Assembly: GCA_018238155.1 (NCBI GenBank)
Contig: JABCTZ010000009.1
Coordinates: 32,001 to 96,000 of the forward strand
Source: Candidatus Heimdallarchaeota archaeon
GTDB lineage: Archaea > Asgardarchaeota > Heimdallarchaeia > JABLTI01
Length of the DNA: 64,000 nucleotides
Direction: 5' to 3'
The position numbers and the translations under genes are program-made. The stretch's first letter is position 1. Each line of letters starts with the position of its first letter. A model generated the notes under the pieces. It searched no databases. It was not told the DNA's origin and worked only from the letters and a program-made list of their open reading frames with translations. This document shows positions 1 to 7,002 of this stretch, in pieces.

Positions 1-378
1 AATCTGGAACCAGGTGACTGGAAGAGAGATGAAATAATCGCTGATACAAAGAAAGGAATACTAATGTCCACAAATAAAAGCTGGAGTATTGACGATAAGC
101 GACTGAACTTCCAATTTGGAACAGAGATCGCCTGGGAAATAGTAAATGGTGAAATAGGTCAAATACTAAAGAATCCAACCTACACAGGTATTACACCTGA
201 ATTCTGGGGTGGAATGGATGCACATTCTAAGGATGACTGGAAATTGTTAGGTACACCTAACTGTGGAAAAGGACAGCCTGGTCAAGTGATGTATGTAGGT
301 CATGGATGTGGAACTGCTAGATTCAATAATATTAGAGTTGGAGTTATGCAAGATGATATGAAAACTGGAGTTCAATAA
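1..378 (+). CDS. tldD: TldD metalloprotease, C-terminal part (5' end outside window)
   Basis: Frame open from base 1 (NLEPGDW...EIIADTKKGI); motifs SWSIDDKRLNFQFG and CGKGQPGQ typical of the TldD C-terminus; pmbA partner lies downstream. Confidence 0.93.
   Translation, partial: NLEPGDWKRDEIIADTKKGILMSTNKSWSIDDKRLNFQFGTEIAWEIVNGEIGQILKNPTYTGITPEFWGGMDAHSKDDWKLLGTPNCGKGQPGQVMYVGHGCGTARFNNIRVGVMQDDMKTGVQ
366..378 (+). repeat. Left copy of 13-bp direct repeat TGGAGTTCAATAA (end of tldD)
   Basis: 12/13 identical to TGGCGTTCAATAA at 5627-5639; core GTTCAATAA identical. Confidence 0.6.
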
Positions 379-869
379 TTTTCATATCTATTTTTTCTTT
401 CGACAGAAATGCTTTCAGTTAGGTGTAGGGAGAAAAGATACTAAGCGAGCAGAAACTTTTGAAGGAGTCTCAGAGGTGATAAAAAGAGGATAGAAAAGTT
501 AGAGAGAAAATAAAATATTATTCTGTTGATATTATTGGAGAACACAAAGGTCAATTTCTATAAAAAACTAAAAGATATGAAAACAGAATAATTAAATAAA
601 AAAATAAGTATTAACTTCTCTTTACAAAGTTAATACAACACTCTTTATTCTCTAAATATCGTGTGAAACCTTATTCTCAATAACGGTCTCTCTTGAGTAG
701 TTGATAGATTTCGTAAACCTGGAAAGATGTGCGTCAATGACTAAAGAATCTCGTACTAACGGAGATTCTTGTTGAGCTAATGTCAATAGTCGTTCTGTAA
801 TAGTCTTGAAAGTAACAAGACCGAATCCAACACTTTTACATATGAGTAAGCGAACGTCATCATTATCCT

Positions 870-1259
870 CTTGACTTATATATTATACATAGAAAGGATT
901 CATTTCCACTCGAGATTTCTGCTGGTGAATTACAGAGAGCCTCTTTGGCTATCGTTACAAGTGACTTTCCTCAAATTGTTATTCTTGATGAACCAACAGC
1001 TAATTTAGATTCAGAACTTGCAGAAGAAGTAATGCAAGAAATTTATAATCTGCATTCTTCTAAAGACATTACTTTTCTAATTGCTACTCATGATATTAAT
1101 TTGATTAAAGATGGTTATAGAGTAATTGTTCTTGAAGATGGAAAAATTGAAACAGATCAAGAAATCTATGGTAAGTTTAATCCATCAGAACGAAGGGCTG
1201 TTCGGGGCGGTATTAGTCAATCTAGTCTAGCTTTGAAGAGAAAGGAAAGAAGAAAGTAA
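870..1259 (+). pseudogene. 5'-truncated ABC ATPase (LolD/MacB-like)
   Basis: Frame reads HRKDSFPLEISAGELQRA (signature), VILDEPTANLD (Walker B/D-loop), IATHD (H-switch); no Walker A, upstream in-frame TGA at 843. Confidence 0.8.
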
Positions 1260-2050
1260 GGAAAACAATCAAATAAAAAAATAATGGAATATATTTTCTA
1301 TTCTACATATCATCATTTAGAGTAGTCAATCGAAGGATTTCTCCACATCTTAGATTAGCAGAATGAAGAATGATAATATCACGATTTACATAGATGAACT
1401 TATTGAATTGTCCGCGTTTGTACAGATACATATGATTTTCTGTAATTCTCGAATTTCATAACGTAAGAATAGCGCTTTCTTTTTTCGGTCTTCCTCTGTT
1501 TCTCTCCAAGGAGGTTGATAGGAACCATAGGACATAAGTGGATCACACTTGAGATATAGATCCATTTCATTAAATTGGCTAGCTGAAAGAGATACAAGAA
1601 AGTATTCATTTAGAGTTTTAAATAGCTAAATACCTATTATTCTATTGAAGAATTGTATATTCTTTAAATCCCATAAACCTCTCTCCCCATAAAATAAGCT
1701 CCTTTTTTCTGAGACGGAGGCTCTGCTCTCATCCAGTTTAAAATGCTCAAATCAATGTGTAATTTGCCTATTTGAGAACTAAATAACATACTTTTACTTC
1801 GTTAGTTAAATCTCAAAGATTAATTAAAAAAGAAAAAAAATAATTTTGTAGAATCACGACCCTCGCTTCTTCTTGAAGGACAAGAAGTCCAGTTAGGTAA
1901 AGACATATGGTGAAGTGCAAAAAGAAACAAAATTGGATAATTTCATAACTTGAAAAAATATTTAATATGGGTTGTTTATGAATAGATTTAGTGTATTAGC
2001 TATTTTATCTAGTTAGAAGTAGCTAATTATCAGGATAAATACTTTAAAAC

Positions 2051-3019
2051 TTGGGGATTATGATAATGAACAAGAAAGTAGTATACACAATTCTATTTAT
2101 TATCCTAATATCTGGTCTACTTTTTGGTTACCCAACATATTTTCTAATCTATAATTCTTCGATAGATATCAAACATGAAACCAGTCAATGGGCTATCGTT
2201 GAGGATGATGATGGAAATCAGTTAGCAGTCGATGTAAATAACAGCAGTGTTTGGTATAATTTGAGAGAATCTTATAATAAGAGAAGTGATGATTCTAATA
2301 TATTTATTATTGGATTAGTAATATCCTATACCAACTCTTGGCATTTTAGATTTGATCCTTCGACTATTTCTTATGGTATAGGTAATATTTCTCCAGAAAA
2401 GTACTATTCAATCAATGAAACTTCTAAAAATTTAGACGCCTTTTTATCTGAATGGATAGCAATTAAAGTAAAATCAATGAACTTTTTTAACTATAAATAT
2501 GTAGGCATTATTGAATTGATAATAAATCTAACTTTGTTAATTGCCACTCTTTTATTATCAAGTTTTTACTTATTATCAAAAAGAGAGAGAGGAATAATTG
2601 ATAATATAAAAGAAGCATTAGTACTTGTAAAGGATAGTCCTGAAGGAATTTCTTTTACACTTCTTTCACAGAAAGTAGCTGTAAATCAAAAACGACTAGT
2701 ACGCCTGATAAATTCGAGAAATCTGCAAGATGAACTAGGGTTACTAATTACCAATGATCGCATCCAATTCAAAGATTCGTTTTATTCAATAAGAGTCTGT
2801 CAGATCGAAGAACAACTGAATACTATCCTTCAGTTATCGCATAATCAAATAACGCAAGAACACTATAGTAAACTCTTTCAGTTTGAAACAGAACTAAAGA
2901 AAGCGTTGTTGTTCTTTTCGAAAAAATCTTCCAATAGTGAGAAAAAAATGGAAATTGAAGCGAAAATTGTAATGACAACCAACTTGTTAGATAGTATAAC
3001 ACTAGATGATTTTAAATAA
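2051..3019 (+). CDS. Membrane protein: TM, external domain (BP74-like), TM, cytoplasmic winged-helix-like/helical tail
   Basis: 322-aa ORF with two hydrophobic segments; WHFRFDPSTISY motif; GISFTLLSQKVAVNQKRLVRLI resembles a helix-turn-helix. Confidence 0.6.
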   Translation: MGIMIMNKKVVYTILFIILISGLLFGYPTYFLIYNSSIDIKHETSQWAIVEDDDGNQLAVDVNNSSVWYNLRESYNKRSDDSNIFIIGLVISYTNSWHFRFDPSTISYGIGNISPEKYYSINETSKNLDAFLSEWIAIKVKSMNFFNYKYVGIIELIINLTLLIATLLLSSFYLLSKRERGIIDNIKEALVLVKDSPEGISFTLLSQKVAVNQKRLVRLINSRNLQDELGLLITNDRIQFKDSFYSIRVCQIEEQLNTILQLSHNQITQEHYSKLFQFETELKKALLFFSKKSSNSEKKMEIEAKIVMTTNLLDSITLDDFK

Positions 3020-3138
3020 AAAAACTGAAAAGCTCAATAGAACTATGGGAAAAATTTAAAAAACCAGCAAGATAGACATTAGTTTCATTTCCTTTATTTA
3101 GAGAGAGGAATGAAATGAAAAAATAGGTGAAAAGATAG

Positions 3139-4245
3139 ATGAAAAAAGGACTTTTATTAAAATTTCTATTGTTATTTATTGGTCTAAGTCTATTATTGAT
3201 GCCAATATCAAACGCTCTGGGTTTTGACTTTATTCCAGATCCCGATCCTCCTCCAGCGGATACACAACCTCCAACTGTAGATATTACCAGTCATTCTAAT
3301 GGTGCAATAATATCAGGTGAATTTACTGTTAAAGCAAATGCAAATGATAATGTTGCCGTAACAAGAGTGTCTTTTGCTTTAGGCACTATTAATCTCGGCT
3401 ATGATACTGATGTTCAATATGAAAAATCATATGATATTATGAATGCTGACTTTTCGCTCCAAGATGGAAACTACCTTCTAATAGCTATTGCGTTTGATGC
3501 TGCTGGTAATTATGCAGTTGATGAAGTTACTGTTCAAGTGCAAAATGGTCAAGAATTTCTGGCATTAGTTGTTGGTGGAGAAACAGAAGAGAGATTTACA
3601 AGAAATGCATTTGGTTTCTATAACACATTAATTGATCATTATAGTTTCGAAGCAGAAAATATTTACCTACTTACTACCAGAACCACTATAGATGGAAATA
3701 CCGTTCCCAGAGATAGAGCAACAAGTAGTGCAAATGTCCAATGGGCTACCAACCAACTAGAAACGGCAGACCTAAATGACCAAGTAATTATATATTGGAC
3801 GGGTCATGGAGGTACTGACATTATTTCTGCAGATGGTGATTTAATCTCAGCATCTAGTTTCAGCTCTTATCTAGATGATATTGATTGTGGGAAGATGTTC
3901 ATCTTTTTAGGTCCTTGTCATTCTGGTTCGTTTATCGATGATCTTAATGATAAACAAAATAGAGCAATATATACTTCTTGTAGTACAAATCAAAGTGGTT
4001 GGGGGAATGGCACACATTCATTCTATCCATGGCTAATATACAAAGGACTAGATTCAGATATGGATGCTGATGATGCAGATACTAACAATAACAACAAAGT
4101 TTCACTATTTGAATTATTCAACTATTGTGTGGACTATATTAATACATTGGAAAGTCAATATAACTTCACGCAAGATCCTCAGAGATGGGTAGGTACTGAA
4201 ATCGGTAATGATGCAAATGCCTATATTGGAGATGAAATTTTTTAG
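3139..4245 (+). CDS. Secreted Ig-like domain + clan CD (C13 legumain/caspase-like) cysteine peptidase
   Basis: Signal peptide; DTQPPTV...DNVAVTRV...AFDAAGN Ig-like domain; catalytic WTGHGG and GPCHSG; DTNNNNKVSLFE motif; GGTGA RBS upstream. Confidence 0.85.
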   Translation: MKKGLLLKFLLLFIGLSLLLMPISNALGFDFIPDPDPPPADTQPPTVDITSHSNGAIISGEFTVKANANDNVAVTRVSFALGTINLGYDTDVQYEKSYDIMNADFSLQDGNYLLIAIAFDAAGNYAVDEVTVQVQNGQEFLALVVGGETEERFTRNAFGFYNTLIDHYSFEAENIYLLTTRTTIDGNTVPRDRATSSANVQWATNQLETADLNDQVIIYWTGHGGTDIISADGDLISASSFSSYLDDIDCGKMFIFLGPCHSGSFIDDLNDKQNRAIYTSCSTNQSGWGNGTHSFYPWLIYKGLDSDMDADDADTNNNNKVSLFELFNYCVDYINTLESQYNFTQDPQRWVGTEIGNDANAYIGDEIF

Positions 4246-4253
4246 ATTAAACT

Positions 4254-4292
4254 GAAGAAGGAACTATTAAATCCTTTTTCTGAATTTTTTTT
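4254..4292 (+). terminator. Hairpin plus T-tract after the peptidase gene
   Basis: GAAGAAGGA...TCCTTTTTC stem followed by T8. Confidence 0.4.
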
Positions 4293-4310
4293 CACTAAAA
4301 ACTCATTAAA

Positions 4311-4680
4311 TTGGGGCATAAACAGGGAAAAAAGAAACAAAGAAGTATGAAATATTCTAGTGATGAATTCAATAAAGAATATCATAAAATCCTTGGTGTA
4401 AAAGAAGAAGAATACTTCAATATAGGGTTACATTATACAATGTTGAGTAATTGTTTTTACTATGGAGTTATAGTATATTCTCTAAGTTTAGGATTATTTG
4501 TAACATTGGAGACCTTATTTTTTATCAATTTCTTTTTCGAAGAATATTTTACATTAATAATTGCCATTATTGTAGGAATGGGATTATTGGTGTGTGAAAT
4601 AATCAGTACAATAACTAAGAAAAGACATCAAGTAAAAACAAGTAATTCTTTCGAATACTGTGTAAGAAATAACTCAAGTG
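4311..4680 (+). pseudogene. Membrane-protein fragment fused in frame to a tnpB remnant
   Basis: Two TM segments, then abrupt change to TnpB-like sequence near 4680. Confidence 0.5.
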
Positions 4681-5623
4681 CTTATCACCTAAATCTTATA
4701 CGCAATGGCATAGTAGTAAGTGGGAAATTATACAAAGATACAAAAAACAAGCGATGGGTGTTCCTTCTAACTATTCGACGAGACCCACCTGCACTTTCCC
4801 AAGGGAAGAAGGTAGCAATTTTAGGTGTTGATTTAGGAATCAAAACGGAAGCATCTCTTGTAGCATTACTCGAAGATGAAGGACTAAAGAAAGAACAATT
4901 CCACTTCTTGAAAGAACCGATATTCAAGCGAGAAAAATACCGATTACGACAGTGAAGAAAAGCTTACAACGAAAACTTACTCAGAGTACTGGTAATCAAA
5001 GAGTTTTGATTTCCAGACAATTAAAGGATGTTCACTTAAAATACTCAAACCTTCTCAAAGAACATTATCACAAGATAAGTCGAAAGGTTGCAGATATTGC
5101 TCAAATTTATCTTAATGAGAACTACCGTGTTCATATCGCTATTGGCAAACTCAAAGGACTGAACCAAAGTGTTAGAAAAGGAGATGGGAAAGGAAAATTA
5201 TTCAGAGGTAAAATAAGTCAATTCCCCTACTATAAATTAACCGAATTGATAACCTATAAATGTTGAGAAATCGGTGTATCGAACATCTCGTTGGTTAAGG
5301 AGAATTGGACATCAAAAGTTTGTCACAAGTGTGATAGTAAGAATACTACAAGACCTTCACAAGCACAGTTCAAATGCTTGAATTGTAGGTTGGAATATAA
5401 TGCTGATGCAAATGGAGCTATCAATATAGCATTAAGATATTGGCAACAACACACAAAGGATGACAAACAAACTGTTAAGCTTATGTTCTTACATAAGAAA
5501 GGAAGTCAACAGTCAACGGCTGTTGACACTGGGAAAAAGATTATTCCCCACACGATGAATTTACTGGAGGCGGAAAGAATTATATCTTCTGCTTCAAATA
5601 AAGGTATAGGAAGTGTAAAATAA
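4681..5623 (+). pseudogene. tnpB: TnpB (IS200/IS605/IS607-type RNA-guided nuclease) pseudogene
   Basis: RuvC-I ILGVDLG (D at 4830); frameshift near 4952; HIAIGKLKG; in-frame TGA 5264-5266; VKENWTSKVCHKC...FKCLNC zinc finger; RuvC-III NADANGAINIA; N-terminus missing. Confidence 0.9.
5480..5597 (+). ncRNA. Candidate omegaRNA scaffold / element right end
   Basis: Four consecutive hairpins (5480-5497, 5505-5527, 5531-5548, 5567-5595) overlapping the tnpB 3' end and ending in TTCAA. Confidence 0.5.
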
Positions 5624-5625
5624 TC

Positions 5626-7002
5626 TTGGCGTTCAATAAGATTCTGTTAATTGAGAAAGCACAATTTGTGCTAAAGCAAGCAGAGAAATTTGGTGCTACT
5701 CAAACAGAAGTAACAATTACTTCTACAACTGGCGCATTAACTCGTTTAGCTAATAGTATCATTGACCAAAACGTTGCTGAACGTCATTTTCGAGTTAGCA
5801 CTATTGCTTATGTTGGAACCCAAAAAGGTTCTACAACAGTAGAAGTTTTTGATAATAAGTCAATTGCAAGTGCAGTTGAAACCGCAGTCAAGATAGCCAA
5901 AATTTCTCCAGAAAATAAACATTTCAAATCTTTACCTGAGAAACAAATCTATACAGATAAGGTTTCACTTGCTGATCTCGTTTCCAAAAATACTATTGAA
6001 GCTACACCTGAGCAACGAGCTGATTTTGCTAAGTTAGCTATTGATAGTGCTCATGCAATAGACAAACGCATTAGAGCTGTTGCTGGAGCAGTTTCACATA
6101 CAACTGCAGAACGTATTATCCTCAATAACCTTGGTTTGGAAGCTTATGATCGTGGCACATATGGTAACGTTAACATAACGGTCCTCGCAGAAGATGGTTC
6201 TGAAGAAACTGCTGGGTGGTCTTCTGATAATCGCAAAGATTTCTCCAAGCTCGATATTCAAACAGTAGCTGAAAAGGCTGCTCGAAAAGCTGTTGATGGT
6301 TTCGGGATGAAATATATTGATCCTGGTGAATATGAAATTGTTTTAGAACCTGCAGCAGCAGCTGGATTTCTCTTCTTTATCAATTACTTTGGTTTCAGTG
6401 CCCAGTCGTACCAAGATTACATCAGCTTTTTACGAGATAAAATCGGTACCAAAGTTTTCTCAGAGAAGTTGACCCTTTGGGATGATGCTTATGACCCTCG
6501 TTTGGAAAACCGTGAAATGTTTGATAGCGAAGGTGTTCCAAAGGCAAAATTGGAAATGATTAAAGATGGAGTGGTCAAGAACCTTACTTACGACACTTTA
6601 ACTGCTAGCAAAGATGGCGTTCAAAGCACAGGTCACAATGCTAAATTCTATGGTCGCTCATTACCTATTGCCCAACATTTGCTTGTAGGTGAAGGTGATT
6701 CCAATCTCGACGAGATGATCGCTGAAACAAAAAATGGTATTTTAGTTACTCACTTTCATTATCAAAATGCCGTCAATCCAACAAAAGGTGTTTTCACAGG
6801 TCTTACTCGAGATGGTGCTTGGTATATAAAAAATGGGGAAATTCAATTCCCACTTAAAACATTAAGATATACTGATGCTGCACCTCGTTTCTTAGCTGAG
6901 ATCGATTTAGTTGGTAAATATATGGATTTGAATGATGCAAGAGCCTTAGTTCCTCCCATGAAATTACCTTCATTCAAAATCTCCGGGTCAAGTAAAGAGT
7001 AA
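5626..7002 (+). CDS. pmbA: PmbA/TldE protein
   Basis: TRLANSIIDQN, PGEYEIVLEPAA, FDSEGVP, STGH and FTGLTRDG motifs; no HExxH, as expected for TldE. Confidence 0.93.
   Translation: MAFNKILLIEKAQFVLKQAEKFGATQTEVTITSTTGALTRLANSIIDQNVAERHFRVSTIAYVGTQKGSTTVEVFDNKSIASAVETAVKIAKISPENKHFKSLPEKQIYTDKVSLADLVSKNTIEATPEQRADFAKLAIDSAHAIDKRIRAVAGAVSHTTAERIILNNLGLEAYDRGTYGNVNITVLAEDGSEETAGWSSDNRKDFSKLDIQTVAEKAARKAVDGFGMKYIDPGEYEIVLEPAAAAGFLFFINYFGFSAQSYQDYISFLRDKIGTKVFSEKLTLWDDAYDPRLENREMFDSEGVPKAKLEMIKDGVVKNLTYDTLTASKDGVQSTGHNAKFYGRSLPIAQHLLVGEGDSNLDEMIAETKNGILVTHFHYQNAVNPTKGVFTGLTRDGAWYIKNGEIQFPLKTLRYTDAAPRFLAEIDLVGKYMDLNDARALVPPMKLPSFKISGSSKE
5627..5639 (+). repeat. Right copy of 13-bp direct repeat (start of pmbA)
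   Basis: TGGCGTTCAATAA versus 366-378. Confidence 0.6.

Follow-up and report, generated by a model that had tools for sequence, protein, structure and literature searches.

Positions 4671-5623 of a window of 64,000 nt (the whole stretch of heimdallarchaeal DNA analysed here) hold the 3' ~58% of a tnpB gene on the + strand, the strand of all window features given below. This relic is very probably a recently inactivated tnpB of the kind described as TnpB2, RuvC-II-rearranged (RIIr) or alternative-Glu (Ealt) TnpB, coming from a clade with an AbrB partner gene and without TnpA. The hallmarks of the TnpB superfamily, namely the RuvC-I Asp, the C4 zinc finger, the RuvC-III Asp and a TNB domain match (Pfam PF07282, Cas12f1-like TNB, E 7.8e-15), were all present in it.

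The relic was read in two segments. The first one (4671..4955, frame 3, reading ..SSAYH..GVDLG..RLRQ) is open from upstream, stops at 4953-4955, and covers in translation the end of the WED-like beta region and RuvC-I, corresponding to positions 217-337 of the 537 positions of the family profile. The second one (4952..5623, frame 2, including VHIAIGKLKGL) comprises a REC2-like long helix, RuvC-II, the zinc finger, RuvC-III and the C-terminal tail, ends at a stop codon at 5621-5623, and matched profile positions 289-529 of 537 with an E value of 7e-99. A Pfam search of the RuvC-I fragment alone (P0001) returned no family. The RuvC-I Asp in GVDLG (4830-4832) and the RuvC-III Asp in NADANGA (5405-5407, D152) were read directly in the translation and are intact, as stated in an earlier note on this DNA. 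The zinc finger, CHKC ... CLNC, spans 5321..5386, with Cys codons at 5321-5323, 5330-5332, 5375-5377 and 5384-5386 (C124, C127, C142 and C145), and 70 residues follow RuvC-III up to 5623. The position of the canonical RuvC-II Glu is occupied by Gly (HIAIGKL, 5144-5146, G65) and a relocated, or alternative, Glu is found in KENWTSKVCHKC (5300-5302, E117), 52 codons further on and six residues ahead of the first CxxC (E-NWTSKV-C); re-reading of the frames placed both residues where the earlier note had placed them. The columns of G65, E117, the four Cys and D152 were invariant in an alignment of 15 sequences, the relic and 14 relatives.

The relatives were obtained by an exhaustive HMMER search with 1856 related clusters; the first 11 (E up to 1e-42) stand clearly apart from the next ones (1e-25), and those genes of this close group that are intact encode 500-583 aa. 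Gly65 and Glu117 (relic numbering) were conserved without exception in the alignment, these intact genes included, and from this invariance the Gly plus shifted Glu is, on the sequence evidence, an inherited trait of the family. Among the best 150 of the 1856 matches, 121 had a recognisable zinc finger, and the Glu stands six residues before the first CxxC in 108 of them. Additionally, the Gly of the intact relative P0005 aligned with the canonical Glu in the ..iqmEdl.. motif of AsCas12f (phmmer). A canonical Glu in intact homologs, or a downstream Glu lacking conservation, had been named in advance as observations that would speak against the inherited arrangement, and neither was seen. It has practically no probability left that the Gly arose by pseudogene decay and that the Glu downstream of it is coincidental: the relic does carry lesions, and at another site a nearly invariant Gly, the one following the second CxxC, is replaced by Arg, but the canonical-site Gly and the shifted Glu are shared by the aligned relatives, intact genes among them, and likewise by Asgard-wide copies, and the 15-sequence alignment refutes this explanation.

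The intact relative P0005 was modelled with AlphaFold 2 (AF2), with a mean predicted local distance difference test (pLDDT) score of 77. The Gly lies in strand 366-374 and E425 comes directly after strand 419-424; the relocated Glu is predicted to stand in the active site beside the two Asp. The bilobed WED/REC plus RuvC fold was found in this model, the relic itself being truncated. Against solved structures (Foldseek), the model matched AsCas12f with E 1.9e-15 and ISDra2 TnpB with E 6.7e-11 (rank 17), both over ~490-520 columns, as well as other Cas12f proteins and the mimivirus Fanzor2 (ApmFanzor2, 9b0l) with E 4e-8 (rank 32). The family profile searched against the Protein Data Bank (PDB) sequences matched TnpB 9nzp with E 1e-18, TnpB and Cas12f chains ranging from 1e-18 to 1e-10, and no chain labelled Fanzor was retrieved up to E 10.

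The arrangement of the relic is known from large groups. TnpB2 is monophyletic, with the RuvC-II Glu changed to Pro or Gly and an alternative Glu ~45 residues downstream (Jiang et al. 2023, PMC10530073); the RuvC-II rearrangements were assigned to two major clades and to eight large branches, of which the largest has Gly (Altae-Tran et al. 2023, PMC10691335); and in Ealt proteins the Glu precedes the zinc finger by six residues (Yoon et al. 2023, PMC10711439). The earlier note had taken Gly plus shifted Glu as the mark of Fanzors and their closest prokaryotic TnpBs, which does not hold, very large prokaryotic clades sharing it (PMC10530073, PMC10691335). The wording "Fanzor-type" is correct in the broad Ealt sense only: the motif of RuvC-I is DLG and not DPG, and TnpB and Cas12f rank above Fanzor2. 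In Fanzors and cyanobacterial pro-Fanzors, Ealt goes together with a DPG motif in RuvC-I, other Ealt TnpBs having D-Phi-G (PMC10711439). Related Ealt proteins carried DLG (42), DIG (8), DFG (4) or DMG (3), and DPG was found in 0 of the 103 related proteins of at least 300 aa inspected. The relocated Glu is a Fanzor feature found in the relic and its relatives; the DPG motif, a link to IS607 or eukaryotic transposases within 3-4 kb at eight relatives' loci, and a eukaryotic, giant-virus or cyanobacterial host were not found, the hosts of the relatives being Heimdallarchaeal MAGs (metagenome-assembled genomes) and marine sediment metagenomes. Because of the DLG, the lack of DPG in the 103 relatives and the lack of a match of the profile to solved Fanzors, the relic is, as judged from sequence, a D-Phi-G relocated-Glu TnpB, and it has no closer kinship with Fanzors than common membership of that very large group.

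A specific relationship, with Asgard archaeal TnpBs as the sister or the source of eukaryotic Fanzors, is very unlikely. The E-x6-CxxC arrangement is common to the relic and Fanzors, the D-Phi-G/Ealt clade is a broad neighbour of the DPG clade that holds the Fanzors, Ealt being separate from canonical-Glu (Ecan) sequences (tree in PMC10711439), and one paper speculates that eukaryotes received some of their TnpBs from the archaeal partner in eukaryogenesis (PMC10530073). On the other hand, besides the RuvC-I motif and the profile and structure rankings given above, no IS607-type serine recombinase adjoins the relatives, and published trees place Fanzors with cyanobacterial IS607 TnpBs (PMC10711439). 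Just as little probability is given to the proposal that the relocated-Glu TnpBs of Asgard archaea (Heimdall/Thor), including the AbrB-linked clade, are the true archaeal sister of eukaryotic Fanzors; if it were true, Fanzor-type nucleases would have entered with the archaeal host at eukaryogenesis, rather than only via cyanobacterial IS607 elements.

An uninterrupted full-length reading frame is lacking in the relic owing to a 5' truncation, a frameshift and a TGA, the same lesions that the earlier note had read, and these are supported by the translation, by the 895-nt metagenome contig L007, which is orthologous to the relic locus with ~90% identity, and by marine-sediment metagenome contigs from three studies, which represent related strains. 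The 5' breakpoint lies at 4670/4671: a contig of the study X1 tracks the window from 4671 only and is unlike it upstream, where its 22 different letters translate to ..PITLEL.., fitting the family motif P.xLEL before S.YH. One A is missing at 4950..4951, which changes frame 3 to frame 2; the extra A is present in L007 and in a contig of the study X2 spanning 4731-5112. The in-frame TGA at 5264..5266 replaces a CGA (Arg), which is read in L007, and contigs of both X1 and X2 have C at 5264. Near-identical alleles without the two point lesions were among the metagenome contigs aligned to the region. The comparison with metagenome contigs thus fixes the breakpoint and shows that close relatives carry longer alleles free of the point lesions.

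The relic is without profile positions 1-216 (WED/REC), and a profile search found no match to them anywhere in its 4.08 Mb assembly. Because this RNA-/DNA-binding half is absent and two interruptions follow, we infer that the window copy cannot act as a nuclease. The Gly directly after the second CxxC, present in 10 of 11 relatives, is Arg in the relic (G146R), the sole change of the window copy at a nearly invariant residue when its differences from L007 were compared with the family. Polarised by the family, the amino-acid differences between both copies comprised 6 derived in the one against 6 in the other, and 17 ambiguous, with no excess in the window copy. It is highly unlikely that the lesions are assembly errors and that the organism has an intact gene. 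The assembly is a 46-contig MAG with 5.9% contamination, and its metagenome relatives are free of both point lesions; however, three independent lesions would be needed, one of them a structural breakpoint, the N-terminal half is nowhere in the assembly, the deletion is outside any long homopolymer, and the TGA is a substitution.

Intact siblings in the same genome, which the earlier note had thought possible, were not found: the assembly contains no second member of the close family, and intact copies occur in congeners and metagenomes. The search for full-length copies succeeded in congeners (552-577 aa) and failed in the own genome. In a scan of one genome per species, full-length relatives were detected in the Candidatus Heimdallarchaeota MAGs CSMAG_1263 and 12R2_15 and in one MAG titled Bathyarchaeia. 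Four of the nine congeners have one close-family copy each, with open frames 48-52% identical to the relic, at different loci, the 577-aa match containing one TAA. A distribution of at most one copy per congener at different loci fits either a patchy toxin–antitoxin-like module or a low-copy mobile element. The Asgard host presumed in the earlier note was confirmed by GTDB, in which the window genome falls in the same genus as two MAGs titled Candidatus Heimdallarchaeota. The locus L011 (DATKZI010000043.1) is labelled "Candidatus Bathyarchaeia archaeon SMAG_U14241" and belongs to the same GTDB genus as the window genome and these two MAGs; its label is probably wrong.

In a quick maximum-likelihood (ML) tree, the relic was placed inside a clade with all close, AbrB-linked relatives (SH-aLRT 100), its sister clade being formed by other Asgard copies (SH-aLRT 99), and the canonical-Glu TnpBs of its own genome fell outside. 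The relic belongs to a small clade of its own Heimdallarchaeal genus and of sediment metagenomes. The wider family (E <=1e-40, profile positions ~160-515) was present in 71 of 301 sampled genomes of the phylum. It was frequent in one Asgard family (46/76 genomes, often with at least four copies) that includes a Thorarchaeota MAG, of the same phylum as the window genome, and the relocated-Glu TnpBs of that family (e.g., L119, L120 and L010) have open frames mostly of ~560-610 aa; this multi-copy occurrence suggests active elements. All 13 wide-family and other Asgard copies that were read have the Gly and the relocated Glu, and their RuvC-I motif, where recognisable, was DLG, with one DQG. Viral contigs were scanned with the family alignment and no relative was confirmed in them. 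Some members of the family (L008:5408-5705, P0006 and P0013) have an additional CxxC...CxxC, probably another zinc ribbon, inserted after RuvC-III and ahead of the conserved tail. A neighbour of one tnpB relative encodes a Sec23/24-like protein.

A gene of 54-63 aa, AbrB/MazE-like according to a custom hidden Markov model (HMM), lies 43-115 nt upstream of tnpB and on the opposite strand at 8 of the 8 close-family loci, and 6 of the 7 such upstream open reading frames (ORFs) scanned exceeded the gathering score of PF04014. These divergent genes are located on the - strand at L009:1662-1838, L109:2696-2875, L110:55-222, L108:187-351, L011:3689-3874, L008:3760-3948, L101:323-490 and L107:351-605. 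No transposase or TnpA, nor any adjoining IS607-type serine recombinase, was seen within 3-4 kb at the eight loci. The gene is absent at the wider Asgard copies L116-L120 and L010. An AbrB/MazE gene beside a rearranged-site tnpB in archaea thus holds for the clade and not for the window copy, whose partner is deleted; the custom HMM found no AbrB-like ORF on the contig of the relic (C10). The AbrB/MazE model gave 12 ORF matches in the genome of the relic. A distant TnpB of the same genome (L005:559-1920, 453 aa), whose Ealt position is occupied by Pro, is likewise closely preceded by an AbrB/MazE-like ORF on the opposite strand (contig C6:37884-38036).

A structured, omegaRNA-like region was located at 5477..5626, overlapping the last ~48 codons of the relic and ending at the right edge of an insert described below. 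It folds into four hairpins with a minimum free energy (MFE) of -39.6 kcal/mol (z -4.3; 0 of 200 shuffles as stable), and a similar series, with different stem sequences, was obtained for L009, L011 and L108 (z -3.6 to -4.4). Nucleotide blocks of the 3' region are conserved among genes whose proteins are only ~40% identical, and the C-terminal tail of P0005 was modelled as disordered (pLDDT <50). Third-position differences from L007 were 4/57 in the 3' region versus 33/166 upstream, and the synonymous divergence (dS) was 0.12 in 5450-5620 versus 0.44 upstream. The RNAalifold consensus of nine 3' regions, aligned with MAFFT, was weak (-4.4 kcal/mol), the variable hairpins being misaligned, and an Rfam search of 4300-5900 gave only one chance-level match. 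By its sequence and predicted fold, 5477-5626 probably represents an omegaRNA scaffold that terminates together with the TnpB element on the right, or it may now be a leader of pmbA; the RNA evidence for a scaffold is suggestive only.

In the part from RuvC-II to RuvC-III, the window copy and L007 differ by 33 synonymous and 24 nonsynonymous changes, with a dN/dS of 0.14 (p 3e-10 against neutrality). The homology of L007 begins at window position 4914, so that it is 5'-truncated elsewhere than the window copy (4671), and the initial 34 nt of this contig are not matched anywhere within the first 8 kb of the window. L007:26-745 is an open frame of 239 aa with its own ATG and an AT-rich, TATA-like stretch ahead. 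Most simply, the gene would have been functional for most of the time since the two copies diverged and would have been inactivated only recently, the two lineages having been truncated independently; given the longer alleles without the point lesions in metagenome relatives, recent death of a previously live gene would account for the low dN/dS.

It is unlikely, though somewhat less so than the other alternatives, that the 3' fragment itself has been kept by selection, as a truncated C-terminal protein, as a structured RNA or as both, for example as a pmbA promoter or leader, needed once the insert had separated pmbA from tldD, or as a regulator. The low dN/dS between two 5'-truncated copies, the low synonymous divergence in 5450-5620 and the open frame of L007 with its own start would fit such a role, as would the fact that pmbA overlaps the tldD stop in congeners and starts here 2 nt past the relic stop. 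However, the frame on which selection is supposed to act is interrupted in the window copy by a nonsense codon and a frameshift, the two copies are truncated at different points, the genes of metagenome relatives extend further 5' with their codons intact, and no activity is known for a fragment without RuvC-I and WED/REC. Recent inactivation of a living tnpB remains the preferred explanation, and three points weigh against it or limit it. Both the window copy and L007 are truncated, at different points, yet the part that they share is under strong purifying selection, which fits recent independent truncations and may leave room for a retained 3' function; none of the metagenome contigs at least 99% identical to the window spans 4950 or 5264; and the omegaRNA-guided nuclease activity of the clade is a prediction.

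A lineage-specific insert of 5.26 kb (379-5626) lies between tldD and pmbA, and its rightmost feature is the relic. The left copy of a 13-bp duplication (TGGAGTTCAATAA, 366..378) holds the tldD stop codon, the insert starting at 379, and the right copy (TGGCGTTCAATAA, 5627..5639) is the start of pmbA and would be the first bases of the omegaRNA guide; the stop codon of the relic is 3 nt from it. All 8 of the 8 congeners that have the locus show an empty site, where nothing separates the 3' end of tldD from pmbA and the 13-mer occurs once. In the two closest congeners, tldD stops and pmbA starts within one TGGTGTTCAATAA, and the same uninterrupted site is present in a metagenome contig of 25 kb. 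Inspected by eye, the ends of the insert showed no inverted repeat. The insertion mechanism is unexplained, because, to our knowledge, IS200/IS605 and IS607 elements leave no such 13-bp duplication. The insert also contains an AAA_21 fragment, an ORF of 322 aa without Pfam match, a Big_7/peptidase-C13 protein and a small ORF with hydrophobic stretches and no Pfam match (4347..4670), which is unrelated to tnpB and was joined to it in frame by the 5' breakpoint. The resulting chimeric open frame of 214 aa (window 4311-4955, ATG at 4347) consists of this small ORF and the RuvC-I fragment, and a Pfam search with the fused ORF gave no family.

Intact members of the clade would be omegaRNA-guided double-stranded DNA endonucleases, as predicted by homology, whose active site would be formed by the RuvC-I Asp (D-L-G), the Glu after the next beta strand and the RuvC-III Asp (NADxN, the RuvC-III motif of "derived" TnpBs; PMC10691335). 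The guide RNA scaffold would be encoded across the 3' end of tnpB and end at the right end of the element, so that the guide at the window locus would be the start of pmbA. The AbrB-like protein may regulate the divergent promoter or serve as an antitoxin-like partner, as the named families suggest. The window copy has lost ~216 profile positions and its AbrB partner and now sits at the right end of the insert that splits tldD-pmbA.

The relic itself matters little, as it is a dead copy and descriptions, models and mutants of the relocated Glu already exist for other members. More notable are the AbrB-linked Asgard clade, the 13-bp duplication and the purifying selection on truncated copies. 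Large relocated-Glu TnpBs, with open frames of about 500-670 aa, are common in Asgard archaea; with the AbrB-paired, TnpA-less clade, the published association of TnpB with ribbon-helix-helix (RHH)/MazE proteins now includes Asgard archaea and a type whose RuvC-II is rearranged but whose zinc finger is retained; and the insert offers a clean pair of filled and empty sites, with a TnpB-ended insert flanked by the duplication. The intact congener copies are candidate compact editors, which may lack collateral activity.

Compared with known systems, Cas12f (AsCas12f, CnCas12f1 and OsCas12f) and solved TnpBs (ISDra2 and 9nzp) were the best sequence and fold matches over the full intact relative. 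CnCas12f1, OsCas12f and ISDra2 TnpB have the canonical RuvC-II Glu; AsCas12f differs from the clade in the same residue, as seen in the phmmer alignment, and Cas12f is CRISPR-associated. Fanzor1, Fanzor2 and cyanobacterial pro-Fanzors share with the relic the Ealt arrangement, the lack of an acidic residue at the canonical position and the TnpB fold as a whole (9b0l, E 4e-8), but the relic has DLG, no IS607 recombinase, no eukaryotic or giant-virus host and no sequence-level match to solved Fanzors. The archaeal association of RHH/MazE genes with TnpB occurs in euryarchaeal and crenarchaeal lineages, with tnpB "downstream" of the small gene, and its RHH/MazE-linked TnpBs are included in the RIIIr-4 clade, with His in RuvC-III and no zinc finger (PMC10691335). 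A small AbrB/MazE-type DNA-binding partner, a 3' region of the size of a guide RNA and a patchy distribution are common to both; here, in contrast, the pair is found in Heimdallarchaeia, its small gene is transcribed divergently, and the rearrangement affects RuvC-II, RuvC-III keeping its Asp and the zinc finger being preserved.

The closest likeness is to TnpB2/RIIr/Ealt proteins (PMC10711439, PMC10691335, PMC10530073), which have the same Gly, Glu six residues before CxxC, D-Phi-G, C4 finger, NADxN and prokaryotic hosts, archaea among them. The clade of the relic differs in its larger size (500-583 vs about 350-450 aa), in the lack of an adjoining TnpA and in the divergent AbrB/MazE-like gene, and the window copy itself is dead. 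Target-adjacent motif (TAM) assays and mutation of the alternative Glu have already been performed on other relocated-Glu members: TvTnpB of Thermoplasma volcanium, an archaeal TnpB2, is a TAM-dependent RNA-guided nuclease without collateral activity, and the alternative-Glu mutant of the Fanzor ApmFNuc is dead (PMC10530073). The relocated-Glu layout has been described and tested in many TnpBs, and the relic is an ordinary member of this group.

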